A stretch of DNA of 64,000 nucleotides from a phage: sequence record PV730299.1; one strand, given 5' to 3'. The position numbers were made by a program, and so were the translations under genes. The notes beneath the pieces were generated by a model. That model was not told the origin of the DNA. It did not search any database and saw only the letters and a program-made list of their open reading frames with translations. Below, piece after piece: positions 9,647-46,471 of this stretch (within the stretch, counting starts at the first letter, position 1; each line of letters begins with the position of its first letter).

Positions 9647-9707
9647 TGGACAGGAACATGACAGACAAGCCAAGAAAGATGAAGAACAAACACCGGAGCA
9701 AACGCTG

Positions 9708-10163
9708 ATGACTACCAAACCAACTTATGAAGAACTGGCGCAGACCGTTCTGACCTTTGACAGCACCCTGAAGAATCTTTACAAGGTGCTGGGAAATAAC
9801 CCGACTTCAGAGTCAGGAGAAACAGTTAATCTTCTGTTACTGATGAACCCTCTGTGGGATATTGATGCCACTATTGCTGCCCTGAAAGATCCTGGGGCAC
9901 AGGAGCCGGAGCCAACCCCTGTATCCACTGGGATTCAGAAATACCTGGAGAACTTTGACGAGTACTCCTTCACAGATCTGCTCCTGCGTGATATGATCAA
10001 CACAGAACGCCGTCGCCAGGGGAAGAACTGTCCTGTGGTCCAGTCTGATGAAGAAATAGAGCAGAGTGTTCGGGAAGATCTGAACAGCACCTACTCGCCT
10101 ATCGATCTGGCTGTAATGATTGTTCAGGCGCTGTCCTACGCCGCCAAAGGAGAAACGAAATGA
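9708..10163 (+). CDS. hypothetical protein
   Basis: 151-aa ORF, acidic, ATGA-coupled to the downstream ORF. Confidence 0.5.
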   Translation: MTTKPTYEELAQTVLTFDSTLKNLYKVLGNNPTSESGETVNLLLLMNPLWDIDATIAALKDPGAQEPEPTPVSTGIQKYLENFDEYSFTDLLLRDMINTERRRQGKNCPVVQSDEEIEQSVREDLNSTYSPIDLAVMIVQALSYAAKGETK

Positions 10164-15534: not shown

Positions 15535-15960
15535 ATGGCGAAGAAACCTGAAGTCAAGAAAGTTGAAATTAAAACCGAAGCCCCAGTCGATGACATCCAG
15601 GCGAAGGAGGAAGGTGTGTTGCCTACCTACCTACAACGCGCCATCGATAACATCCCTCCAGGGGGAGACGGAGGCGTCGTCTACGCTGGCGGGTACGGTT
15701 GGGTGTGCGAATACCAAGACGGCACGAAGGAACTCCTCCAGGAGCTTCCAGGGCTGGCTGCGACCCTCAAGCGTTATGGTCGCGACAAGTTCGGCAAGCC
15801 GTTTGAAACCGGGGCTGTGATTGAAACTAACATCACAGTCGAGACTCTGAACCTGCTGGGTGAAGATGATCTCAAGTTGTTGGCTGCGCCGCTGGGTATC
15901 ACAGAAGAAGATCGCATTCAGCTGATTGCGAAGCTGATCGAAAAATTGCAGATTAAATAA
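15535..15960 (+). CDS. hypothetical protein
   Basis: 141-aa ORF with AGGAGA 7 nt upstream. Confidence 0.5.
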   Translation: MAKKPEVKKVEIKTEAPVDDIQAKEEGVLPTYLQRAIDNIPPGGDGGVVYAGGYGWVCEYQDGTKELLQELPGLAATLKRYGRDKFGKPFETGAVIETNITVETLNLLGEDDLKLLAAPLGITEEDRIQLIAKLIEKLQIK

Positions 15961-15990: not shown

Positions 15991-16383
15991 ATGCCTATCG
16001 TTGACGAAAGCAACTTGATGGATTATGCACTGAGGCATTATATTGTAGATTCTGTCTCGTGGGATGAACTGCTGGTAGACATTCAGCGGATTTCGCTAAT
16101 TAATCAATCATTGAAGAGATTTGTCCCTGGTAAGAGTCCTCGGTTGATTCTCAATCAATTGATTACTGTCTTCAATACGTTCGAAACAGAGGCCGCTTGC
16201 CGTATGCTCGTTTTGAAGGTGGATAAGCCCCAGTTGCCACGCCTCAAGGCTGCTTTGTTGACATTAGGCGTATGGCGCGATGATTTATGTTCCGGTTCAT
16301 ACGAACCAGATAATGAGCTGATGATGGCTCTGAACAACGATTTGGATGAGTGGAGGAAACCATGCCAACGATCACTGTATTAG
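15991..16383 (+). CDS. hypothetical protein
   Basis: 130-aa ORF in the plus-strand gene train. Confidence 0.45.
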   Translation: MPIVDESNLMDYALRHYIVDSVSWDELLVDIQRISLINQSLKRFVPGKSPRLILNQLITVFNTFETEAACRMLVLKVDKPQLPRLKAALLTLGVWRDDLCSGSYEPDNELMMALNNDLDEWRKPCQRSLY

Positions 16384-17171
16384 TAGCACCGGAAGTTGTT
16401 CGCAACAAACCGGAAACTGAGCGTCTTCACACTGTAACAGGTACTGCTCGGGGTTGGGAAAAGACCAGTCTTAACCAAGACCCAGACGAGATCCTGACTG
16501 AGTGTAAAGGTCTGGATGCACTGCTGACCAAGAGCAATTTGCAGGCCGATGGCGTCACCAAAGTGGATCCAACCAAGCCCGTTGGCTTCCAGCTGTCTTA
16601 TGAAATCCACGACCCAAGCGCTGTGCTGACCACTGGCCTGACCATCACCCCTGAAACTGCTAATGGTGAAGTCGGTCAGGTTGTTGAACTGAAGGCGGTC
16701 GTCGCTCCGGAGAACGCGACCTACCAGGGTGTCAACTGGTACTCTGGCGATCTGACCAAAGCTGTGCACATCGGTGGTGGTAAATTCAAGCTGCTGGCGC
16801 CGGGTTCAGTGACTGTTTACGGTGTAACCATCGAAGGTGACCACACTGACTCTACCGTCATCACAGTGGCTGGCGCTCTGTCTCTGTCTACCGATCTGGC
16901 TGCTTCTCAGGATGTAACAACAGGTGAATCCGCAACCTTCACCATCGCTGCTACAGGCGGCACTACCCCATACACACATACTTGGTACTTCTCTGATGTC
17001 CCTGGTGGTGAAGGTGAGGTGATCGATGCTGGCACTAACCCCACTGCTGCAACTGCGAGCCTGGTTATCACTACAGTTGCTGCCGAAAACGAGGGTGAGT
17101 ACTGGTGTGTTGTTGAAGACGCTGACGGCCACTCTGTGACCTCTACTCGTTGCGAAATGGCTGCGGTCTAA
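16362..17171 (+). CDS. Ig-like domain-containing protein (possible virion surface/decoration protein)
   Basis: GGAGG 5 nt before ATG 16362; Big_2-like segment YQGVNWYSGD...FKLLAPGSVTVYG and an Ig-like segment ending EGEYWCVVEDADGHSVTS. Confidence 0.55.
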   Translation: MPTITVLVAPEVVRNKPETERLHTVTGTARGWEKTSLNQDPDEILTECKGLDALLTKSNLQADGVTKVDPTKPVGFQLSYEIHDPSAVLTTGLTITPETANGEVGQVVELKAVVAPENATYQGVNWYSGDLTKAVHIGGGKFKLLAPGSVTVYGVTIEGDHTDSTVITVAGALSLSTDLAASQDVTTGESATFTIAATGGTTPYTHTWYFSDVPGGEGEVIDAGTNPTAATASLVITTVAAENEGEYWCVVEDADGHSVTSTRCEMAAV

Positions 17172-17435: not shown

Positions 17436-17458
17436 AAAAGAGGCTCCGGCCTCTTTTT
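17436..17458 (+). terminator. rho-independent terminator
   Basis: AGAGGC / GCCTCT stem with the same TCCG tetraloop as the rIIB terminator, then TTTTT. Confidence 0.7.
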
Positions 17459-17525
17459 CATTTCCAGCATTTGGTGTATAATGGACCCGTTCCCCATGAG
17501 CGGAACCTAACTGAGGATACACCAA

Positions 17526-18026
17526 ATGAAATCCATGGTCAAACGTAAAGTCGAAATCTCCCTGACTGCCCATATTGAAATGGTCCAACAACTTATCCTG
17601 GATGCGTATGAAATCCAGAAAGATCGCCAATCGAGGGGAGGTGTGACGGACCCCACCTGTCCTGGAAACATACTGTACTATCGCATGCTGCGCCAGACTG
17701 GGCACACCGCCGCGCTGAAGAAGATTCTGTCCTATGATTTCCAGACAGAGAACAACCTCAACATCATGGGTGTCTTCCATAGCGTTAGTGAACGCGATTC
17801 TTTCTTCCGCTCCCGAGCAGGCGCGGATGTATCATTACCCGATGTAGACAAGAAACAGCACACGACAACCATCTCCCATTACATGGGCACGGGCATCGAT
17901 AAAGCAAACATCATCGTGTTCTCTGATACGTTGCATGACCCCAAGCGCCTTGCATCTGCGCATGAAATGCTGCGGGAAGGCCGCAGCGCCCTCACTAATT
18001 TGACTTTAGTAGTGTTTCTGGGCTAG
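17526..18026 (+). CDS. hypothetical protein
   Basis: 166-aa ORF starting after a terminator/promoter-like region; GAGGA upstream. Confidence 0.5.
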   Translation: MKSMVKRKVEISLTAHIEMVQQLILDAYEIQKDRQSRGGVTDPTCPGNILYYRMLRQTGHTAALKKILSYDFQTENNLNIMGVFHSVSERDSFFRSRAGADVSLPDVDKKQHTTTISHYMGTGIDKANIIVFSDTLHDPKRLASAHEMLREGRSALTNLTLVVFLG

Positions 18027-18075: not shown

Positions 18076-18273
18076 ATGTACAAGTTCAGAATTAACAGAG
18101 AACGTAATTCGTTCAAATTCGGTGTAATCGCTGGGGTGTGTTTGTTCCTGGCGCTCGAAAGCGTTATCGGCCTGCTTACAACACCACAAATGCAGGTGAC
18201 TCGTTACCTTCTTGCCATTATATTTTCTGTTGTCGGTTTACTCTGCTCCTATTTGGGGTGTGTGAAGAAATAA
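18076..18273 (+). CDS. small membrane protein
   Basis: 65 aa with two hydrophobic helices; AGGAGG 7 nt upstream. Confidence 0.45.
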   Translation: MYKFRINRERNSFKFGVIAGVCLFLALESVIGLLTTPQMQVTRYLLAIIFSVVGLLCSYLGCVKK

Positions 18274-18300: not shown

Positions 18301-18804
18301 TTGAGAAACTACATCATGATGCTGTTAATGAGCGTTCCACAGAACAAGATGACCCCTGCAACAGAGGGTAAGAATCACTTCAACATCTACAGCCGGAGCC
18401 AGACGGAACTCGGGCGCTTCCTCTCGCATTTTACCCATCATCCAATGACTACCCATGAACATGGTGTGTTTAACTCCATGGAGGGGTACTGGTATTGGCT
18501 GAAGTATAGGGATGACAACCTGCGCCTGCTCGACGGTTATGAGGCCAAGCAATATGGACAGGGATTGGCGGCTTCCCGCGTCATTGTCCTGGATCCGTCT
18601 ACCGAAGAATTCAAGCGCGATATCCTATTTGCAACTAGCATGAAACTCCAGACAATGCCTGAACGTCTGAAGATCAGATTGGCTTACAGTCGCCTACCCC
18701 TGATCCATGCATATGTTCAGAACGGGAAATACAGTTTTCAAAACTCTATGGACTATATCATTGCCCACATTAATCGTCTCCGCATACAAGGAACTTTGAA
18801 ATGA
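18301..18804 (+). CDS. NADAR-domain protein (YbiA-like)
   Basis: FNIYSRS ... GRFLSHF ... SMEGYWYWLKY follows the NADAR/YbiA pattern (FYS .. G.FSNF .. SxEHYFQAxKF); size 167 aa fits the domain. Confidence 0.55.
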   Translation: MRNYIMMLLMSVPQNKMTPATEGKNHFNIYSRSQTELGRFLSHFTHHPMTTHEHGVFNSMEGYWYWLKYRDDNLRLLDGYEAKQYGQGLAASRVIVLDPSTEEFKRDILFATSMKLQTMPERLKIRLAYSRLPLIHAYVQNGKYSFQNSMDYIIAHINRLRIQGTLK

Positions 18805-19382
18805 AATTTCTACACACTATCGTCGACACTTCTTATGACTGCACTGCTCATACCCCAGACCGTTCGCCTGTGTTTGTTCTGAACAAACTAGGTGAAGAGA
18901 TCTGTGAACTGTCTGATGTGTTTCATGGCATAGTATCTTCCGAGCCGTTGAATGGCGAAGTTGCTGATGTCATTATCTCTGCTATTGACCTTCTGTACGT
19001 CATGGATTATGACGACGTCCAAATGCGCGGCTCTATGAACAAGGCCGAAATGATCGACTCTGTCATCAACCACATGGCGACAGTGAACGATATTTCTTCT
19101 AATCTGTTGGAAGAAGACTGGTTCCGTCTGATTGATCGTGATCCTCAAAAGCATCTGAATCTTATTCATCACTATCATGGCCGGATTATCCGATTGTGCA
19201 ACCAGCCTTATCGCAGTCAAGACAGATTGGATCATCTTGTCAATGACCTAATCAAGCATGTTGCGCGCATGGGGTGTGGGGAAGGGGCGATCCGTGGATC
19301 CTCTTTGATGGCCACTCGCATTAAAGTGGAGCACGCTATTGAACACAAGGTTGAAAAGTGGCGTAGCAAATTTGGTCTATAA
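18801..19382 (+). CDS. MazG-like nucleotide pyrophosphohydrolase (putative)
   Basis: Acidic helix motifs LGEEICELSDV and EVADVIISAIDL spaced as in the all-alpha NTP pyrophosphatase EExxE...ExxD signature. Confidence 0.4.
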   Translation: MKFLHTIVDTSYDCTAHTPDRSPVFVLNKLGEEICELSDVFHGIVSSEPLNGEVADVIISAIDLLYVMDYDDVQMRGSMNKAEMIDSVINHMATVNDISSNLLEEDWFRLIDRDPQKHLNLIHHYHGRIIRLCNQPYRSQDRLDHLVNDLIKHVARMGCGEGAIRGSSLMATRIKVEHAIEHKVEKWRSKFGL

Positions 19383-19431
19383 GCCGACCCCATACATAAT
19401 CTTGTGTGTTTACCATTGACGGGATAGGCCG

Positions 19432-21342
19432 ATGTCCAACAAAATTGATATTGAACGCAAGTACAAGAAGCTCACTCACGTTGAGCATATCCTACTCCGC
19501 CCAGAGCGTCATCTGGGCAGTATTCGTTCGTCTGTGGGGACGGTGTGGGTGTATGACCCAACTAAGGATAAAGTCATCTTCCGTGACAACTTTGAGTACT
19601 CCCCCGCGCTGATCAAACAGTTTGATGAAATTATCACCAACTGTGTTGACCACAGCAAGACCCCTGAGGGCAAATCCCTGACGGAAATCACCGTCACAGT
19701 TTCCCCGATGAACGGTCAAATCATCGTTGCTGACAACGGGGGTATCCCTGTGGTCAAGCATGGCGTCACCAACGAGTGGCTTCCTGAAATGTTGTTCGGC
19801 TCTCTATATGCGGGATCGAACTTCAACGACGAAGACGAAGAGTACAACAACCAGAAGTCCGGTGGTCAGAATGGCGAAGGGGCGTCCCTCGTCAACGTGT
19901 TCTCCAAATGGTTCCGCGTCACGACTAATGACGGCAAGAAGTCTTATACTCAGACGTTTGAAGACAACATGAGCAAGAAATCTAACCCAGTCATCAGCAA
20001 CGTGAACAGTCCTGGCACATCCATCGCCTGGATCCCTGACTATGCTCGTCTAGGCGTCAAAGGACTTGACCAGAACAACCTGCTGATGATCTATCGCCGC
20101 GCGTTTGAAGTGGCTGCGTGTAACCCGCGCCTGAAGATTGTTCTCAACGGGAAGCAAATCCGGATTGACCGCTTTGGCCACTTCGTTGATTACTTCCATG
20201 CTGGCTCGGCTGTTGACGAAACCGGGGATTGGTCTGTTGCTGTAGCCCCTTCATCCGGTACGTTCATGCACGCATCATACGTGAACTCTATTGCCACCCA
20301 CATCGGTGGTCCTCACGTTGATTATGTTGCCGACCAGATCGTGGCAGCGATTCGTCCCCAGCTGGTGAAGAAGTTCAAGACCGAACTGAAGCCAGCAATG
20401 ATCAAGAACCACATGTCCTTGTTCATCGCTGCCGACATCAACAACCCGCGCTTTGACAGCCAGACCAAGGAGCGCATGACCACTCCTGTCAGCCAGTTCG
20501 GTACGTCGTACAAGCCCAGTGATAAACTCATCCGCAAGGCGCTTGAGTTCGTTATGGCTGGTCTGAGCAAAGAACTGGCTTCCCTGCGCAATGAGCAGGA
20601 TGATGCTGAGTTTGAAAAGGCCAAGAAGGACATCAGCAAGCGGGATTATCGTGAGATTGAGAAGTATTACCCGGCGACCGCCCGTGGTGACCGCAGCGGA
20701 TGCTCCCTGTTGCTGACAGAGGGTGATAGTGCCTCCAATCCTATCCTGAACGCCCGCGACACCAAGAAGATCGGGTTGTTCCCGCTTCGTGGTAAGTTCA
20801 TCAACTGCCTGAACGCCCCGCGCTCAAAGGTGATGAACAATGAAGAGTTCAAGAACCTGTGTACGATCCATGGCGGCGCAGTGCCAGGCCAGCCCCTTGA
20901 TATCACCCGTTACCCACAGACTGTTGTGGCTACCGATGCGGACGATGACGGCATCCACATCCGTGGGTTGTTGATCACCCTGTATTGCACCTACTGGCCG
21001 GAGTACGTCCGTCAGGGCAGGCTGAAGCTCCTGCGCACCCCTTACATGCGTGTGTGGTGTGGTAAGGTGATGCATGAGTTCATGAACAACGCAGAGTATG
21101 AGGAGTTCCTGAAGACGCCTGATGCCAAGAAGATCACGAAGAAGAAATATCTGAAAGGTCTGGGTGGTAACAGCACTGAAGACTTCAAACGTATTCTAAA
21201 CAACCTGGATGCGTATACTACGACGGTCACGCTGGACGATGGTTATCAACAGTCACTGAAGAATGGCTTCGGTGATGAGGCCGCCGATTACCGCAAAACC
21301 TGGTTTAGCGATGTTTGCCTGTTTGAAACTGAGGATGAATAA
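19432..21342 (+). CDS. 39: DNA topoisomerase II large subunit (GyrB-like ATPase plus Toprim; T4 gp39/gp60 equivalent, unsplit)
   Basis: GHKL ATP-binding region (VADNGGIPV) and Toprim motif LLLTEGDSASNPI; 636 aa. Confidence 0.88.
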   Translation: MSNKIDIERKYKKLTHVEHILLRPERHLGSIRSSVGTVWVYDPTKDKVIFRDNFEYSPALIKQFDEIITNCVDHSKTPEGKSLTEITVTVSPMNGQIIVADNGGIPVVKHGVTNEWLPEMLFGSLYAGSNFNDEDEEYNNQKSGGQNGEGASLVNVFSKWFRVTTNDGKKSYTQTFEDNMSKKSNPVISNVNSPGTSIAWIPDYARLGVKGLDQNNLLMIYRRAFEVAACNPRLKIVLNGKQIRIDRFGHFVDYFHAGSAVDETGDWSVAVAPSSGTFMHASYVNSIATHIGGPHVDYVADQIVAAIRPQLVKKFKTELKPAMIKNHMSLFIAADINNPRFDSQTKERMTTPVSQFGTSYKPSDKLIRKALEFVMAGLSKELASLRNEQDDAEFEKAKKDISKRDYREIEKYYPATARGDRSGCSLLLTEGDSASNPILNARDTKKIGLFPLRGKFINCLNAPRSKVMNNEEFKNLCTIHGGAVPGQPLDITRYPQTVVATDADDDGIHIRGLLITLYCTYWPEYVRQGRLKLLRTPYMRVWCGKVMHEFMNNAEYEEFLKTPDAKKITKKKYLKGLGGNSTEDFKRILNNLDAYTTTVTLDDGYQQSLKNGFGDEAADYRKTWFSDVCLFETEDE

Positions 21343-21343
21343 G

Positions 21344-22675
21344 ATGGTTGCTAAGAGCATTACTGTAACGGACTTTGTCAACACTGACCATAAGCAGTTT
21401 TCTGTGGTCAACAGCATCCGTCAAATCCCTCAGCTGATTGACAGCCTCAAGCCAAGCCAGCGCAAGATCCTTTTCGCTGCTCTTGAGTACAACAAGGAGG
21501 AGATTGTTGACCGCCTTGGTATGTTCGCCGCCGCTCGCACCAACTACAAGTCTGGTGGGGAGAATATGAGCGGCACTATCGTGAACATGGCTCAGGGGTT
21601 CCCAGGCACGAACAACATCCCGTACTTTGACCGCGATGGCCAGTTTGGTTCTATCATGGGGCGTGATGCTTCATCTGCCCGATACATATCCGTCGCTGTA
21701 TCTGACGTTATCCGTAAGATCTTCCGCAAGGAGGATGAGGGTATCTTGGAATACAACTACCTTGGTGAAGAAAGGCTGGAGCCGAAGTTCTTTCTGCCCA
21801 TCCTACCCATGTTCCTGGTGAATGGGATCAATGGTATCGGCACCGGATATTCCACCGACACCCCGTGTCATTGCGTTAAGTCCGTGCTCAGTGCCCTGAG
21901 AGCGCTTCTCCGTGGCGAAGACCCGAAAGACTTAAAACCGTACTGGAACGGCTTCAAAGGAGAGACAGGCTATACTGAGGAAGGAAGAGCATACAGTCGC
22001 GGCATCTTCCGTCGCGTCAATGCCACGACCCTGCATATCACCGAAGTCCCAGTGGGTTGGTTCGCCAAAACCTATGAGACCAAGGTGTTGCTGCCTCTGT
22101 ACAAGGCAGGTATCCTCACCGAGTACGCCAACGACACGACGGAAGATGGCTGGGATATCACGGTTGTGTTTAAGCGCGGCGAACTCTCTAAGCTGAGTGA
22201 CGAGCAGGTTGAGCAGATGTTCAAGCTGTATTCAGCCACCAAGCCTGTTTGGACGGCATGGGATGAAGACGGTGTTATTCATCGTTATTCTGGTTGGCGG
22301 GACATGTTGCTGCCGTTCTTCAATTATCGCCTGTCACGGTACGAAGACCGTCGCCAGTATCTGTTGAAGGACATGGCAGACAGGATCCGCAAGCTGGGTG
22401 ACCGGGCGGTGTTCATTGAATGGGCGACGCGTGTTGATCTCCGCCAAAAGATTGACGTGCTGAAGTCTCTGTTCATGCAGGATTACCCGGACTTTGGTGG
22501 TGATCTTGACGAGTTGTTCAAGATGCCTCTGTCGTCTATTACTCTGGACGCCCGTGAGCGCCTACTGAAGCAGATTGAGAACCTTGAAGCACAGCACAAG
22601 GAATTAAGTAAGAAAGAGGATATCGATCTTTACACTGAAGACCTTGATGACCTTGAAAAGGCTCTTGGCCTATAA
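21344..22675 (+). CDS. 52: DNA topoisomerase II medium subunit (GyrA-like cleavage/religation subunit; T4 gp52 equivalent)
   Basis: ATG 21344 one nt after the upstream stop; 443 aa, same size class as T4 gp52; directly follows the ATPase subunit. Confidence 0.8.
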   Translation: MVAKSITVTDFVNTDHKQFSVVNSIRQIPQLIDSLKPSQRKILFAALEYNKEEIVDRLGMFAAARTNYKSGGENMSGTIVNMAQGFPGTNNIPYFDRDGQFGSIMGRDASSARYISVAVSDVIRKIFRKEDEGILEYNYLGEERLEPKFFLPILPMFLVNGINGIGTGYSTDTPCHCVKSVLSALRALLRGEDPKDLKPYWNGFKGETGYTEEGRAYSRGIFRRVNATTLHITEVPVGWFAKTYETKVLLPLYKAGILTEYANDTTEDGWDITVVFKRGELSKLSDEQVEQMFKLYSATKPVWTAWDEDGVIHRYSGWRDMLLPFFNYRLSRYEDRRQYLLKDMADRIRKLGDRAVFIEWATRVDLRQKIDVLKSLFMQDYPDFGGDLDELFKMPLSSITLDARERLLKQIENLEAQHKELSKKEDIDLYTEDLDDLEKALGL

Positions 22676-25617: not shown

Positions 25618-25830
25618 ATGACTACAGAAAGAAGTTACAGAAAGAACTTCAATATCGAAGGGATTGAGTTCTACCACCATTACGCCCAGGACACCCATGG
25701 CACTGTATGCAACACATATATGCTTGACGGTCACCCTGTAAGTTCCGATGAGTTCTATCGTGTTTTGCGCGAGTCTACAGAAGAATCCCTGTCTTACATT
25801 ATCAATGCCAACGGATTGATTAAACCATGA
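25618..25830 (+). CDS. hypothetical protein
   Basis: ATG 25618 downstream of the terminator; the track's longer ORF from 25531 would span the terminator hairpin. Confidence 0.4.
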   Translation: MTTERSYRKNFNIEGIEFYHHYAQDTHGTVCNTYMLDGHPVSSDEFYRVLRESTEESLSYIINANGLIKP

Positions 25831-26516
25831 TCAACGTATCAATAAACGACCGTGATTTCGTTCGCGATGTTATGACAAACAACAAAGACCCTCTTGCGTA
25901 CAACGGGGAGAAGGTTACTCTGTTCTGGTCAGGCGGCGTGGACAGCACGTACATGCTATTCTGGCTGTTGGCTCACGGGTACGAAGTTCACACGATCTAC
26001 TGCGAACTGGAGAACAACTCCTTCAAGGTGAAGCGTGAGAACTGGGCGCGCAAGAAGATCAGGGAGTGGGTGACCACCAATTCACCGAGGTTGAACACTC
26101 ATTGGCATCACAGGGAAACCCCGATCAGCAAAATGAGCATCCAGTCTGGTGGGTTCCGGCCTTGTCTGGCTCAAGCCCCTGTATGGTTAGTGAACACTCA
26201 ATTCGTGGGCGGCCATTTTGATCGAGGACTGCCAAGAACTTATGTGATGGCATACGTCAACGGAGACGACGCTCTCCACTGGATTCCAGCCTTCAACAAG
26301 ATCGTGGAGGGTTATAACATGTTGGCCAAAGACGGACATGAGATCACCGTTCTCTTCCCTCTCGCCAGCATGAAGAAGACATGGTTCTACGAAGCCCTGA
26401 AACCGATCTATGGCCTGATGACCTGGTGTGAATATCCCGTTCTGAAAAAGAACTGTGATTGCCCCGCTTGTGTCCGCCACCGTCATGAACTTTCCGTGTT
26501 TGAGGGGAAACAATGA
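25827..26516 (+). CDS. queC: QueC-like PP-loop ATPase (7-cyano-7-deazaguanine synthase family)
   Basis: PP-loop LFWSGGVDSTYML followed by GYEVH as in QueC; QueC-like PL..K.TW block; C-terminal tetra-Cys cluster TWCEY...CDCPACVRH. Confidence 0.7.
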   Translation: MINVSINDRDFVRDVMTNNKDPLAYNGEKVTLFWSGGVDSTYMLFWLLAHGYEVHTIYCELENNSFKVKRENWARKKIREWVTTNSPRLNTHWHHRETPISKMSIQSGGFRPCLAQAPVWLVNTQFVGGHFDRGLPRTYVMAYVNGDDALHWIPAFNKIVEGYNMLAKDGHEITVLFPLASMKKTWFYEALKPIYGLMTWCEYPVLKKNCDCPACVRHRHELSVFEGKQ

Positions 26517-28015: not shown

Positions 28016-28330
28016 ATGACCCCATTAAAAGAAATGTATGAGCGTCTGGCTGAACTACAGGCGAAGGAAAAGCGCTTCTCAGAAGAAGAGTCTGAAATTG
28101 CCGAGCTGAACAACCTGATCGCCACTCGTGAGAAGTACCTGCAGCGCTACATTAATCACCCGCCGCGCATGGTAGACCGCGTCAGCACTATCATGGACCT
28201 GGATGAAGTTACTCCTGGCAAAGAAATCATTGTCAGGGAAGTCCACCAGATGGTCGCCATGGGTCAGATCTTTGGTCGTGCAGACCAAGACGACATGATC
28301 TTCCTCCTTGAAAAGAAACTGGTGATGTGA
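28016..28330 (+). CDS. hypothetical protein
   Basis: AGAGGA upstream; coiled-coil-like N-terminus. Confidence 0.5.
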   Translation: MTPLKEMYERLAELQAKEKRFSEEESEIAELNNLIATREKYLQRYINHPPRMVDRVSTIMDLDEVTPGKEIIVREVHQMVAMGQIFGRADQDDMIFLLEKKLVM

Positions 28331-28836
28331 TGGCTATCAAACCCCGTATGTTATTTGCGCATATGCGCTCGGCTCATGCATACGCTCTGTCCAGCTATGC
28401 CCAGCGCCTGAAGGTCGGCTGTGTTATCGTTGACCCGCGTGTTGACCAGCCCCTGTCTATCGGTTGGAACGGGACTGCTCCTGGCGCTCCTAATGTCTGT
28501 GAGAAGGAAGTAGACGGTCAACTGGTATCGGTGGGTGTTATCCACGCCGAGGAGAATGCTCTGAGCAAACTCCCCCAGCACACCGAAGACTGTTGTGGTC
28601 TGGTGATGTTTGTCACTCATAGTCCATGCCCAGAGTGCACCCGTCGTATTATCGACAGTGGCAAGATCGCTAAAGTGTTCTATGACCGACCATATCGTAT
28701 CATAGACGGCATTATTGAAATGCTGGCTGCTGGGATTGAAGTATATCGCATGGTCGATCAGATTGTTGTAGTCCAGCATTCTGTGAAGAACGGCGAACTG
28801 GTATCCACCCCTGTTTTAGTGAACCCTGACAAATAA
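28330..28836 (+). CDS. cd: dCMP deaminase (CMP/dCMP deaminase zinc-binding family)
   Basis: Zinc-binding motifs HAEENAL (H-A-E) and SPCPECTRRI (PC..C); ATG 28330 overlaps the upstream stop. Confidence 0.8.
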   Translation: MAIKPRMLFAHMRSAHAYALSSYAQRLKVGCVIVDPRVDQPLSIGWNGTAPGAPNVCEKEVDGQLVSVGVIHAEENALSKLPQHTEDCCGLVMFVTHSPCPECTRRIIDSGKIAKVFYDRPYRIIDGIIEMLAAGIEVYRMVDQIVVVQHSVKNGELVSTPVLVNPDK

Positions 28837-42059: not shown

Positions 42060-43122
42060 GGTCCATTTGCTCCAGCATGTTAGCAGGCATAACAGTACCG
42101 TTAGAAACACCGAACATTTTCTTCACGTCATCGGCGAAGTTGACATTCTCCAGCAGCGGATACCAGAAATCATCACCCATCTGACGCTTCTGATATTTCT
42201 TTTCCTTCTCAGGATCGAAACCACCCTTGGCTGTACGCACATACCAGCCGGAAGACGGCATATCAACATAACCCAGAGCACGAGCGATCTCAAGCAGGCC
42301 GCTCCAGCGATCAATACCACCGTTGTACAGTACCGTCACAGGGAGCTTGGCTTTCTCTTTGACATGGCGACCTTTCATGATGCTTATGTTGAAGTTCCAG
42401 CCCAGCAGATCTTTGTCTTCCTTCACCTGAGAACGGGTGATAAACCAGATCAAGTTGGAGGATAAGAAGCCCTGTTTGCCACCTTTGATGTTAGGCTCGG
42501 CATATTGGTTGCCGATCTCATCGTAATAAGAGTTGATCCAAACACACACGAGATTTTTGCTGTTGATTTCGGGAGTCATGACACGCCAGAAGCTGTTAAG
42601 GGCACGGGCGCGGGTCATGTCCTGAGTGTCGTTCCCTTTGATCGCATCTTCAACTTCCTTGGTGGAGGGAAGTTGGCTGATAGAGTCGATGAAGATTATA
42701 ACATGGTCGCCTTTCTTGACTTCCTGTAGGATCTGCAGCAAGCGGATCTTGGTCTGTTCAACGTTGTCGATCGGTACGTACAGGACGCGGTCCATGTCAA
42801 TGCCCATAGAGGTCCAGTAATCGGCGTTGGCACCCTTTTCTGAGTCCGCAAAGACGCAGATAGCATCAGGGAACTTGTCCATGTACGCCTTGACGTCTAC
42901 CAGACCGAACATCGTTTTGAAGGTACGGGAATCACCCACCATCATCTTGATACCGGAGATCAGACCGCCGTCAATACGCCCAGACCATGCGATATCGATC
43001 AGGGGAATACCAGTAGAACAGATGATAGACGGTTCCAGAGCGTCGGATTTGGACAGCACTGAAGCCTGGTCATCGTGTTTCTTAGCAACCTTCAGCATGC
43101 GGTCCATTAATGAACTGGCCAT
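42037..43122 (-). CDS. uvsX: UvsX recombinase (RecA/Rad51 family)
   Basis: IPLIDIAWSGRIDGGLISGIKMMVGDSRTFKTMFGLVDVKAYMDKFPDAICVFADSE aligns from memory to T4 UvsX (IPMMNIALSGEITGG...GPSKSFKSNFGL...YPDAVCLFYDSE). Confidence 0.85.
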   Translation of the reverse strand: MASSLMDRMLKVAKKHDDQASVLSKSDALEPSIICSTGIPLIDIAWSGRIDGGLISGIKMMVGDSRTFKTMFGLVDVKAYMDKFPDAICVFADSEKGANADYWTSMGIDMDRVLYVPIDNVEQTKIRLLQILQEVKKGDHVIIFIDSISQLPSTKEVEDAIKGNDTQDMTRARALNSFWRVMTPEINSKNLVCVWINSYYDEIGNQYAEPNIKGGKQGFLSSNLIWFITRSQVKEDKDLLGWNFNISIMKGRHVKEKAKLPVTVLYNGGIDRWSGLLEIARALGYVDMPSSGWYVRTAKGGFDPEKEKKYQKRQMGDDFWYPLLENVNFADDVKKMFGVSNGTVMPANMLEQMDHVINTSE

Positions 43123-43649
43123 TTCACTTCCTCTTTATTGTTGATCGTCGTTAATAATTCTACACCCATAACCTTCTGGGACAAAATGTTAACCGCCTCT
43201 TGGATGCTCTTCAGGGACATTGTCTCAACAAGCGACGATGCGTCATTATGCCGGTCGGTTAGGTACATATTGCGCAGATTGTTGTAGTTCGTGCGGTTGA
43301 TGCACGCAGTGTTCAGTGCTATATTCAGGATATACATCATCTGTTCAATGGTTACATCCTTTGGCATAGCGTGGATGTAATAGATCGAGCCTTCAAAATA
43401 GACGTCTACCAGTTCATCTGGTATCTTGATGCCACCACCGGCATACTCTTCGATCATCCTGAACAGAGACTCTGGTTGCTCGCTGGCGATTTTATGCGTA
43501 ACAGTCGCCGAAAGACCGTCGCCCGGTTTAACAGGCCTGTTGTATTCAGTAAGGAATACATTATGTCCGCCGCCGATGATGTGCTCGGCGAATTTGGAAG
43601 ATGCCTGAGCAGCGTTCTCCGCATGGTATGAAACGACGACTGTAAACAT
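43107..43649 (-). CDS. hypothetical protein
   Basis: 180-aa ORF coupled to uvsX and the upstream gene. Confidence 0.45.
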   Translation of the reverse strand: MFTVVVSYHAENAAQASSKFAEHIIGGGHNVFLTEYNRPVKPGDGLSATVTHKIASEQPESLFRMIEEYAGGGIKIPDELVDVYFEGSIYYIHAMPKDVTIEQMMYILNIALNTACINRTNYNNLRNMYLTDRHNDASSLVETMSLKSIQEAVNILSQKVMGVELLTTINNKEEVKWPVH

Positions 43650-44203
43650 TAGAACTCCAGGGTCAGAGGGGTTTCTGCGGACTTATCGTAATCCGCGCCA
43701 CCAGCAGCACGCAGGCGATTGCGATCGTTCTTGCGTTTGTGTGCCAGTATGTAAGTCTCGATGTCGATCTCCATATAAGAACACGCAGACGACAGGAAGA
43801 ACATGAGAGTCTCAACGCAAGGATCGTTCATGAATTGCCCAAGGCGGTACGTAACATTGCGATGCCCTACAACACCCAAAGCAGATGGGGTGAATTCGCG
43901 ATTACTAAGGACTTCAAATTCTTCTTCGATCTCACCTTTGGTGCGGTCCACAAGGATGAAGCACAACATGAAGTGTACCACGTCCACCAGTTCATAAACT
44001 GCGTTCGTATGGTCAAACCCGATGTCGTTGCCATAGACCTTCCAGTCACGGGTGGTTTCATCAAGGAACTCTGCCCACTCACGATAGATAGAGTTGATGA
44101 CTGCGTTCTGACTCCATACATTCTTCCACTCTTCCCCAAAGTAGGCCACGTTAGTGGCCTTTTGGAGTTCGAGCAGGCTTTTGATATGCCCTGCTGTGAT
44201 CAT
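43649..44203 (-). CDS. all-alpha NTP pyrophosphatase (dUTPase/dCTPase-like), putative
   Basis: Acidic helical motifs WAEFLDETTRDW and YELVDVVHF; sits within the nucleotide-metabolism cluster. Confidence 0.35.
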   Translation of the reverse strand: MITAGHIKSLLELQKATNVAYFGEEWKNVWSQNAVINSIYREWAEFLDETTRDWKVYGNDIGFDHTNAVYELVDVVHFMLCFILVDRTKGEIEEEFEVLSNREFTPSALGVVGHRNVTYRLGQFMNDPCVETLMFFLSSACSYMEIDIETYILAHKRKNDRNRLRAAGGADYDKSAETPLTLEF

Positions 44204-44769
44204 TTACGTTCTCCGTAGAATTTAACGAACGGCTCCCAACCATCAAATGGATTGAGGAATTCGTAGTCCACTTTCATTTGGTCAATGAAAGCCTCTATAT
44301 CGTCCTCTATGATACCAGCACGGTCGGCCTTTGAAATACGGGTGATAGGACATTTCGTACTCAGCGCCCATTCATATTCCTGAGGGGTACGCAGATCGCT
44401 CACGATATAATGGACGTGGGGGTTCTGCTCTACCAGAGGAAGCTGGAAGCGCTTGAAGAATGCCAGGAACAGATCGGGTTGTACGTAACGCAAGCCCGTA
44501 TCGCTGCCTAGATGAAGCCAGATCTGCCGTGGAGTTAAGCCCTTGGGGTTATCAGGGTGCACGTAAGGAACGTCCTTCACGGCATCCTCTACCTCCGCTG
44601 GGAGCCATGGGTAGATGTAGTTGGCTACACGGCGCAGTTCATCCGAGAACGAAAGGCGCTGGATGTCCATATCACCCTGTAAGTGGTGATAACTGATCAG
44701 GGACTCCAAACAGAAGTCCTTACCGGAGCGCTTGCGCCCCGTAAAGAATTCAAGATTTGGATACATCAT
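44200..44769 (-). CDS. 1: deoxynucleoside monophosphate kinase (T4 gp1-like)
   Basis: N-terminal P-loop FTGRKRSGKDF resembling the T4 gp1 GVKRSGKDT loop; 189 aa. Confidence 0.6.
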   Translation of the reverse strand: MMYPNLEFFTGRKRSGKDFCLESLISYHHLQGDMDIQRLSFSDELRRVANYIYPWLPAEVEDAVKDVPYVHPDNPKGLTPRQIWLHLGSDTGLRYVQPDLFLAFFKRFQLPLVEQNPHVHYIVSDLRTPQEYEWALSTKCPITRISKADRAGIIEDDIEAFIDQMKVDYEFLNPFDGWEPFVKFYGERK

Positions 44770-45812
44770 ACTACACCTTCCAGGAACTTAGGATCAATGA
44801 TCTTGCGGTCAACCGGGGAATGGGTGAGCGCGGTGTTCAAGCCATGATCCTGAATCAGGTCCAGGTTAATGAGCTTTTCGTTCAGTTTGCAGTGCAGACA
44901 GTACGCCATCTGTACAATCAGGCCGCGATCCGCATCGTATTCCTTCAGGTGAGCAACCACAGTTTCCCACGGGCTACCGATATCACAGTGATGAAGCACA
45001 CCAGTGAACAGATTGCGGATATGGTTCTGGTTGGTCACGTTCGTGAAGTGAATCATGGAGTTGATGAACCCAGCTTCTACTTTGGTGTCCTTCGTGATCT
45101 TGCCCAGCTGCTTCTGGCTGACTTCATTGTTGTAGTAATGAAGATTGTTAGAGAATAGCTTGTACTGACCGACATCAACACCCAGCACCCGAGCAATCAC
45201 TTCCTGAAGAATAGAGAACTCAATGAAGTTAATTGAACTCATCCCCCACAGAACATCCTGTGAGCGATTGATGACCGTCAGGTTCAGACGACCTTCAACG
45301 ATGGCGAATAACAGAGCCAGGTTACACACCATGTCCTTGGTCTTCGCTTCGCCGCTCTCGCTGAACTTCGCCAGACCAGCATCCGAATCTAGAGCCGGGT
45401 CATAGATGGTGAGGTACGCCTGGCGAGTGTTTGGGTTCTTACGCAGGCGGTTGATAACGCTATCCAGCTGGTCATGGGCGTACAGACGCGGACCATAAGC
45501 AGCTCGCCATGTTACCCCATCATCCGAAAAGTTAGCAGCGCGAGGCAATACGCGTGACAGGAACTTTATGTCGTTGCGGCCTGACAACACCCAGAAGGTC
45601 TCGCCGATGGCAGCGATAGCCGATGAGTTGCGACCTTCAACGGAGAGCCAGCGGTCACGGATGTCGGCGACGGTTATGGTCACGCCATCAAGGAAGCGGG
45701 TGCTATCAGTATTGATTTCAGCATTACCAGGATCAGATTCGATCCCGAATTCACGGATAGCCAAGACAGCCTGCTTCAGCATGTCATTGTTGTTAATTGC
45801 TTTGATTTCCAT
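44766..45812 (-). CDS. thymidylate synthase family enzyme (ThyA or dUMP hydroxymethylase-type; not a dCMP hydroxymethylase)
   Basis: Catalytic block VCNLALLFAIVEGRLNLTVINRSQDVLWGMSSINFIEF aligns to the ThyA C...QFYV...YQRSxDVFLGLPFN region, with Asn (not Asp) at the pyrimidine-specificity position; HYYNN as in ThyA H.Y.N; 348 aa with a C-terminal extension. Confidence 0.75.
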   Translation of the reverse strand: MEIKAINNNDMLKQAVLAIREFGIESDPGNAEINTDSTRFLDGVTITVADIRDRWLSVEGRNSSAIAAIGETFWVLSGRNDIKFLSRVLPRAANFSDDGVTWRAAYGPRLYAHDQLDSVINRLRKNPNTRQAYLTIYDPALDSDAGLAKFSESGEAKTKDMVCNLALLFAIVEGRLNLTVINRSQDVLWGMSSINFIEFSILQEVIARVLGVDVGQYKLFSNNLHYYNNEVSQKQLGKITKDTKVEAGFINSMIHFTNVTNQNHIRNLFTGVLHHCDIGSPWETVVAHLKEYDADRGLIVQMAYCLHCKLNEKLINLDLIQDHGLNTALTHSPVDRKIIDPKFLEGVV

Positions 45813-46471
45813 CAGATACTCCCAAAATCACGACAGAGGAATGCCATCACAGCCTGGTCTACTGTTAGGCCGTGAGACTTCATCATACCCGCAGCCACCG
45901 TAGGGAACAAGCCTTTATGTCGTTGACGATGGTCATGAACTCTCTCCCACTTCTCGACCACCAGACTTTCATTGAAGTCCACACCACCGTTACGTGATTT
46001 AACGCGGGAGATACACGTTTCAAGGGGAGTGTCCATAAAGAGCACAACCAATTCACGTGGTGGGCGTGTCAGACGGGGGATCCAAGAACTCAATAATGTG
46101 GATGGAATGATACCTTCGAAAATCACATCATATTTCAAGTATTCTGGTTGGTCAGCAATAGACAACGCGAACAACATCTGCTCAGTGTCCTTCAGGGAAT
46201 CAACCCCCTTGGACTTCGACTTGTCATATTTACCGATACAGACCACGTTGAACGAAGGACAGACAGTCAGCATGACCTTGCCGTTATGGGTCACGACATA
46301 CGCCTGAGGATCCCTCTCCGCCAGCTGAGACGGCACAGTGGATTTACCGCTACCATTGGAGCCTTTGACGTAGTAGATTTGCCCTCGTGCTGGGTAGATC
46401 CCCTTTACGACGGGTGGTTTAAAGAATGTGTGGACGGGGCGCTTCATCAGCCCCTTCAGGGAGTAGGACAT
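45812..46471 (-). CDS. P-loop kinase, function unassigned
   Basis: Walker A GSNGSGKST; 219 aa; translationally coupled (shared base) to the thymidylate-synthase-family gene. Confidence 0.55.
   Translation of the reverse strand: MSYSLKGLMKRPVHTFFKPPVVKGIYPARGQIYYVKGSNGSGKSTVPSQLAERDPQAYVVTHNGKVMLTVCPSFNVVCIGKYDKSKSKGVDSLKDTEQMLFALSIADQPEYLKYDVIFEGIIPSTLLSSWIPRLTRPPRELVVLFMDTPLETCISRVKSRNGGVDFNESLVVEKWERVHDHRQRHKGLFPTVAAGMMKSHGLTVDQAVMAFLCRDFGSI

Follow-up and report, generated by a model that had tools for sequence, protein, structure and literature searches.

Whether a phage protein that resembles NADAR enzymes in a few short motifs is one of them, and on what it might act, is the question raised by a gene at positions 18301 to 18804 (+ strand) of phage sequence record PV730299.1. 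We analyzed this gene within a 64,000-nucleotide stretch of the record, here called the window. A first-pass annotation made from the sequence letters had named the product a NADAR-domain protein and a candidate reverser of guanine ADP-ribosylation, citing the motifs FNIYS, GRFLSHF, and SMEGYWYWLKY; all three are present in the translation of the open reading frame (ORF) at that position. The standard profile libraries told against the assignment. A Pfam scan of the window protein returned nothing at E ≤ 1, neither NADAR (PF08719; gathering score, 35.1 bits) nor Phage_30_3 (PF08010; gathering score, 36 bits), and scans of NCBIfam and PADLOC, including the PADLOC DarG model, gave no match. Single-sequence and profile searches of the PDB sequences yielded chance matches only, with E values above 0.1, and a precomputed PF08719 or PF08010 domain was found in 0 of 42 close homologs. 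The sole library family matched was PHROG 652, annotated as “unknown function” (E = 2.4e-53).

Profile-profile comparison, in contrast, finds NADAR. When a profile of 189 family sequences was aligned by hhalign with a profile of 108 sequences of the T4 gp30.3 (AdfN, anti-DarT factor NADAR) family, the match had a probability of 97.5% and an E value of 5.7e-12 over 110 columns; against Escherichia coli YbiA, the probability was 94.1%. The 189-sequence profile was needed for this result, since a smaller alignment of 26 sequences reached only 57% to gp30.3 and 73% to YbiA. Reciprocal hidden Markov model (HMM) searches between the two families detected 189 of 189 and 107 of 108 members, and the window protein itself scored 17.4 bits against the gp30.3 HMM that we built. 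T4 gp30.3 also has PHROG 652 as its top match (E = 9.2e-51), and YbiA matches the same PHROG at an E value of 1e-7. In addition, the window protein has the YbiA-like α+β fold, with a helical core and small β-hairpins at its flanks.

The domain is widespread and occurs in telling company. A profile search over 1.84 billion representatives found it in at least 1,838 clusters at 50% identity. Among 60 multidomain relatives, it is fused to DUF4326 (12 cases), Macro (9), DUF488 (4), and the canonical NADAR domain (1), and about 14 further matches are to SLOG-type domains (YAcAr, DprA-like, YpsA, and LDcluster4). The relative that carries a canonical NADAR domain and a window-type domain in one protein, P0123, also gives the better of the subthreshold PF08010 matches seen in two distant relatives (27 bits). 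The same network of fusions among ADP-ribose-processing domains has been described for viral NADARs (PMC9503650). Because fold, profile-profile comparison, common PHROG, reciprocal HMMs, and fusion context agree, we conclude that the window protein belongs to the NADAR superfamily and is homologous to AdfN and YbiA. A coincidental resemblance in a protein that is not a NADAR would be favored by the empty Pfam, NCBIfam, PADLOC, and PDB searches; it is refuted by these agreeing lines, and we regard it as hardly credible. The first-pass annotation had offered an HMM search against the NADAR family as its check; read literally, that search went against the call where curated profiles are concerned, yet the call was essentially right, and the missing curated match is a problem of sensitivity.

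The catalytic residues expected of a NADAR are in place. Glu56 (codon GAG, 18481 to 18483, + strand) is invariant in the 189 family sequences and aligns with E36 of AdfN, E48 of YbiA, and E43 of the P. nicotianae NADAR; residue numbers here and below follow a 162-amino-acid form of the protein. Lys63 (codon AAG, 18502 to 18504, + strand) aligns with K43 of AdfN and with the catalytic Lys of YbiA, K55. His131 (codon CAT, 18706 to 18708, + strand), which is 99% conserved, lies at the start of the C-terminal β-hairpin, just before a strand predicted at residues 132 to 135, and aligns with H123 of AdfN and E125 of YbiA. These three correspondences hold in hhalign and MAFFT alignments alike. In published NADARs, the catalytic Glu and Lys sit on the core helix (E43/K50 in the P. 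nicotianae enzyme and E88/K95 in that of E. coli C7), and the AdfN substitutions E36A and K43A each abolish function (PMC11257639). At the acidic position on the last strand, YbiA-type NADARs have Glu and DarG1-type NADARs have Asp, whereas the gp30.3 NADARs of phages have His (PMC11543638, PMC11125620, PMC11257639).

Five residues, E56, H131, K78, K110, and Y133, are conserved at 98 to 100% across the 189 diverse sequences, and K110 lines up with K104 of YbiA, the conserved Lys in the A-x-x-x-K helix. The near-invariance of these residues, together with the retained K63, gives a pattern that fits an active site. A C-terminal α-helix is predicted at residues 146 to 158 (18751 to 18789, + strand) by DSSP on the AlphaFold2 model and includes a conserved R156; loss of the C-terminal helix inactivates RB69 AdfN (PMC11257639). 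Loss of the catalytic residues on alignment had been named in advance as a finding that would undo the NADAR call, and we find them kept: E56 and K63 align with the essential residues of AdfN, and H131 aligns with the phage-type His.

What such a protein would do is suggested by its characterized relatives. Guanine-linked ADP-ribose on DNA and RNA is hydrolyzed by all NADAR clades tested, namely, the DarG1-type, sigma70-linked, and YbiA enzymes, T4 AdfN, and the unrelated phage proteins NADAR-Bas32 and NADAR-Bas60. Since every tested clade has this activity, an ADP-ribosyl-base N-glycohydrolase is the most likely function. The phage NADARs tested counter the DarTG1 defense system: T4 AdfN strips ADP-ribose from DNA bases, defeating the bacterial DarT1 toxin, and NADAR-Bas32 and NADAR-Bas60 reverse DarT1 modification. 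For these published enzymes, then, the general claims of the first-pass annotation about NADAR activity on ADP-ribosylated guanine and about phage NADARs in counterdefense are borne out.

By analogy, the window gene would be expressed from the early/middle accessory region that runs from rIIA-rIIB to the topoisomerase II genes, and its product would act as an ADP-ribosyl N-glycohydrolase, with Glu56, Lys63, and His131 holding the distal ribose. Cleavage of the bond between ADP-ribose and the nucleobase would restore the base. The leading candidate substrate would be N2-ADP-ribosyl-guanine made by DarT1-type toxins on phage single-stranded DNA, and repair of the ADP-ribosylated DNA would let phage replication continue. 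The candidacy proposed by the first-pass annotation is supported by NADAR homology and by the Glu/Lys/His triad; catalysis, substrate, expression timing, and the counterdefense role are what we infer. On balance, we judge that the protein is probably an active hydrolase of ADP-ribosylated bases serving in counterdefense. That DarT1-made ADP-ribosyl-guanine is its specific substrate we propose more tentatively, as quite possible rather than probable.

Comparison with known systems places the window protein nearest to T4 AdfN in kind. Both are stand-alone phage proteins of about 150 to 160 amino acids with a NADAR fold and a PHROG 652 match; both have the essential Glu and Lys (E56/K63 versus E36/K43), His at the canonical Glu site, and a C-terminal helix; and both genes belong to an early accessory region in the genome of a large, DNA-modifying myovirus. 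Unlike AdfN, the window protein falls below the PF08010 threshold and lies in a separate clade, carries Gln where AdfN has R66, lacks the Trp of the W79/W89 position, and adds an invariant N-terminal H-x-N-x-Y-S motif plus a W-Y-W helix. The DNA modification also differs, being derived from 5-hydroxymethyldeoxyuridine (5-hmdU) in the source phage and 5-hydroxymethylcytosine (5-hmC) in T4. The best substrate of AdfN is hydroxymethylated T-even DNA, and we speculate that divergence from AdfN could be an adjustment to another DNA chemistry.

Other characterized NADARs differ in other ways. The DarG1 antitoxins (BC4488 family, including the E. coli C7 NADAR and G. lovleyi 8BAT) have Asp (D171) at the third catalytic position, where the window protein has His, and they carry an N-terminal DNA-binding extension and adjoin DarT1, whereas the window protein is without the extension (162 amino acids, compared with 219). 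E. coli YbiA (PDB 2B3W; PF08719/DUF1768), which serves in housekeeping as an N-glycosidase of riboflavin intermediates and whose gene belongs to a LexA-regulated operon, is 14 to 17% identical to the window protein, which keeps none of its Glu125, R79, W89, and D130-x-x-W133-G. NADAR-Bas32 (T5-like) and NADAR-Bas60 (Vequintavirinae) resemble the window protein in being orphan phage NADARs from outside the T-even phages. They were found by conserved-domain search and cluster with archaeal and bacterial non-YbiA NADARs, whereas the window protein goes undetected by the conserved-domain models tried and is placed in the His-type branch.

Several observations weigh against an AdfN-like role. In a neighbor-joining tree rooted on YbiA, the window family and the gp30.3 family fall into two distinct clades at a distance of 0.93, compared with distances to YbiA of 0.91 for the window family and 0.85 for gp30.3; the window protein is thus about as far from gp30.3 as from YbiA, and transferring AdfN function to it is a long extrapolation. 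By alignment, the diphosphate-binding set of the P. nicotianae enzyme (R79, W89, R93, D130, and W133) is not retained: Q82 appears to occupy the diphosphate-binding Arg position (R79 in YbiA, R66 in AdfN), V89 appears to occupy the canonical Trp position, and the D-x-x-W-G motif that follows the last strand (D130/W133) has no apparent counterpart. The Ackermannviridae subfamily, to which the window protein belongs, has Q, S, or E at the Arg position and V or I at the Trp position. With the Arg, the Trp, and the D130-W133 motif lost, the ligand pocket may differ; R88, K78, and K110 are candidate substitutes for the R79 and W89 contacts. One study saw no rescue of cells from DarT1 toxicity by T4 NADAR (PMC11125620), so activity in vitro is no guarantee of protection in vivo. 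A survey from the Aravind laboratory holds that phage NADARs mainly target small signals derived from ADP-ribose (PMC9503650). Finally, no ADP-ribosyltransferase or DarT gene adjoins the NADAR-like gene, whose neighbors encode a small membrane protein and a MazG-like protein, and we found in the literature no phenotype data or DarT link for Ackermannviridae.

The loss of ligand contacts is part of an exchange within the family, which we counted in an alignment of family members P0043 to P0191. Among Ackermannviridae-type members (n = 28), K63 is kept in 23, and R82, W89, and W147 are missing. The distant majority (n = 160) has Lys at position 63 in 8 sequences and lacks it in 152, and has R or K at position 82 in 139, W89 in 59, and W147 in 150. 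This swap of Lys against Arg/Trp between the two groups might mark a rewired His-type NADAR in which the Arg/Trp contacts were exchanged, the catalytic Lys was regained, and the substrate is unlike that of AdfN, an idea that we consider unlikely. Candidate substrates would be ADP-ribosylated bases in 5-hmdU-hypermodified DNA (compare AdfN on 5-hmC), another base-ADP-ribose adduct, or a small immune signal, possibly processed together with the cotranslated MazG-like pyrophosphatase. On a wider view, the clade that Pfam misses (at least 1,838 clusters), in which the Lys essential to AdfN is mostly absent, could form a viral branch of ADP-ribose hydrolases with a function of its own.

The surroundings of the gene bear on these possibilities. 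At 99% identity, the window matches Escherichia phages YX22 and AV101 and Enterobacter phage fGh-Ecl02, all of them Agtrevirus-type Ackermannviridae, and the source phage is an Agtrevirus-like member of this family. The genes run in the order rIIA, rIIB, two small genes, an Ig-domain gene (16350 to 17171, + strand; Hoc-like, with Big_2 and Ig_3), a histone-like gene (17526 to 18026, + strand; 166 amino acids, PHROG 4164), a small membrane protein gene (18076 to 18273) that adjoins the NADAR-like gene, the NADAR-like gene itself, a MazG-like nucleoside triphosphate pyrophosphatase gene (18801 to 19382, + strand; PHROG 1247, E = 1.6e-35), and the topoisomerase II subunit genes (19432 to 22675). 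Coordinates, library matches, and gene order thus agree with the earlier description of the gene as lying beside a MazG-like gene and between the Ig protein and the topoisomerase genes. The ATG of the MazG-like gene overlaps the stop codon of the NADAR-like gene by 4 nucleotides (ATGA), which suggests that the two are probably cotranslated, and their synteny is kept across Ackermannviridae. The MazG-like gene, for which a Pfam scan gave no match, is context only, and any functional link to its neighbor is putative.

About 25 kb away lies a cluster for DNA hypermodification, all on the − strand. It comprises a 5-hmdU DNA kinase (45812 to 46471; PF18748, E = 4e-109), a thymidylate synthase homolog (44766 to 45812), a weakly recognized dNMP kinase-like gene (44200 to 44769), a dUTPase_2-type pyrophosphatase (43649 to 44203), and a phage ACT-like protein (43107 to 43649). 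This content indicates ViI-type, 5-hmdU-derived DNA modification in the source phage; the kinase, the thymidylate synthase homolog, and dUTPase_2 match the ViI-type thymidine hypermodification pathway (PMC5889632, PMC8989533). The MazG-like gene is unrelated to the dUTPase_2 gene of this cluster.

Against this background, the same fold and chemistry might serve another substrate: a small immune signal or toxin derived from NAD+ or ADP-ribose, such as cyclic ADP-ribose isomers or other ADP-ribose-base conjugates, or ADP-ribosylated RNA bases or cytidine. The repeated fusion of relatives to Macro, SLOG, and DUF4326 domains speaks for this explanation, such architectures having been read as a division of labor on diffusible ADP-ribose derivatives (PMC9503650), and the loss of the canonical diphosphate-binding Arg and Trp in the subfamily suggests an altered ligand. 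NADARs are also published to act on ADP-ribosylated RNA guanosine and on ADP-ribosylated cytidine. Nevertheless, every phage NADAR tested, from three clades, reverses guanine ADP-ribosylation on DNA and counters DarTG1, degradation of an immune signal by any NADAR was not found in the literature examined, and the window protein stands alone, with no Macro or SLOG gene among the neighbors scanned. We rate a different substrate as unlikely overall. It seems improbable that the protein is instead an N-glycosidase of nucleotides or metabolites that joins the cotranslated MazG-like pyrophosphatase in cleansing or remodeling the nucleotide pool, for example for thymidine hypermodification. YbiA, which detoxifies riboflavin intermediates, is indeed a published N-glycosidase on ribosylaminopyrimidine phosphates, one GenBank ortholog is labeled “putative N-glycosidase,” and the conserved ATGA overlap and the 5-hmdU genes of the window would suit such a pairing. 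Yet the hypermodification cluster is distant and has a pyrophosphatase of its own that is unrelated to the MazG-like protein, the pairing with MazG is unseen in the three neighborhoods examined outside Ackermannviridae, and the signature residue is His, as in AdfN, not Glu, as in the YbiA subfamily.

A catalytically inactive NADAR-fold protein, whether a virion component or a binding or sequestering protein, is more improbable still. Two canonical ligand-binding residues are missing, and some phage NADARs have been proposed to be packaged in the head (PMC9503650), but E56, H131, K78, K110, and Y133 are near-invariant, K63 is kept, and the gene sits among early-type genes (rII and topoisomerase) outside the morphogenesis block. 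The label “virion structural protein” on an ortholog in the record of one relative was considered and rejected as evidence for this reading, as nearly all records say “hypothetical protein” and PHROG 652 carries no structural annotation. Hydrolysis of ADP-ribosylated bases in counterdefense is the function that we favor over these alternatives.

The gene itself is real and not a chance ORF. Ratios of nonsynonymous to synonymous substitution (dN/dS) of 0.16, 0.10, and 0.07 against three orthologs indicate strong purifying selection. Read from the TTG at 18301, as in the ORF listing, the product has 167 amino acids; read from the ATG at 18316, the coding sequence of the NADAR-fold, AdfN-like protein (18316 to 18804, + strand) specifies 162. 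Because homologs are 160 to 162 amino acids long and begin with MMLL or MLLL, and most GenBank records annotate 161 to 162 amino acids, the ATG is the likely start; the TTG, used in a few records, is the less likely alternative. A putative, weak Shine-Dalgarno-like element, GAGAAA (18303 to 18308, + strand), lies 7 nucleotides upstream of the ATG, and GAGA is kept at this place in three orthologs. An antisense ORF of 75 amino acids (18325 to 18552, − strand) that falls wholly within the gene is unsupported and probably spurious.

Homologs of the protein were found by tblastn in 576 phage records, comprising Ackermannviridae (phages of Salmonella, Escherichia, Klebsiella, Dickeya, Serratia, and Erwinia), jumbo phages, and Vibrio phages; T-even phages were not among these records. 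Within Ackermannviridae, they span Agtrevirus, Limestonevirus, Kuttervirus, Taipeivirus, and the Erwinia phages phiEa2809 and Bue1, and nearly all are annotated as “hypothetical protein.” From its sequence, we assign the window protein to the His-type phage NADAR branch, whose characterized prototype is T4 AdfN, and place it outside the curated Pfam Phage_30_3 family. The neighborhoods of distant relatives (contigs L004 and L006 and phage 121Q) are accessory regions with no consistent partner. The first of these, a metagenomic phage contig that carries relative P0042, encodes (1 to 1177 and 9703 to 10068) a Thg1-like protein, a weakly matched NMNAT/CTP-transferase-like protein, and a PTH2 peptidyl-tRNA hydrolase, content that hints at an RNA repair or NAD-related accessory region.

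Published work already covers NADAR enzymology and the anti-DarTG1 action of orphan phage NADARs. Our literature searches for a link between NADAR or DarTG and Ackermannviridae found nothing of substance, and neither ADP-ribosylation nor antidefense comes up in a 2024 review of the family. If the window protein is active, counterdefense by His-type orphan NADARs would extend from the T-even phages to many jumbo phages and to the whole of Ackermannviridae, a family whose phages see wide use against Salmonella, E. coli O157, Klebsiella, and Dickeya; PHROG 652 and a gene called “hypothetical protein” in nearly all records examined would gain a function. Surveys built on the curated NADAR and gp30.3 profiles undercount phage NADARs, as a clade with at least 1,838 clusters escapes these profiles. 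These results refine an annotation and widen a known distribution; they introduce no new mechanism.

Some further features of the region were noted. In several close relatives (vB_CECAV_050, vB_EcoM-RPN242, PH4, PC3, and LIMEstone1), an HNH or homing endonuclease gene lies between the MazG-like gene and the gene for the large subunit of topoisomerase II, where the window has only a 49-nucleotide spacer (19383 to 19431; compared relative, L001, 5376 to 6206). Some records name the MazG-like gene “viral tegument-like protein.” An N-terminal stretch of some 50 residues in the Ig-domain protein (15 to 65) weakly matches DUF7440/PHROG 3795, the family of the gene at 15535 to 15960 (+ strand), two positions upstream, which suggests an N-terminal module common to the two proteins. 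The histone-like protein matches PHROG 4164, “histone family DNA-binding,” from end to end (E = 2.4e-76) and has no match in Pfam or NCBIfam. A promoter and terminator scan gave weak consensus matches only and was not used as evidence; the best promoter-like site, TTTTCA-16-TATAAT (17455 to 17482), itself a weak match, stands just upstream of the histone-like gene and could drive the string of histone-like, membrane protein, NADAR-like, and MazG-like genes. Past topoisomerase II, the accessory genes include one for a PP-loop ATPase-like protein whose N-terminal part gives a weak QueC/ThiI-type match (25827 to 26516, + strand; E = 1.4e-6) and one for a dCMP/cytidine deaminase (28327 to 28836, + strand; E = 4e-16).
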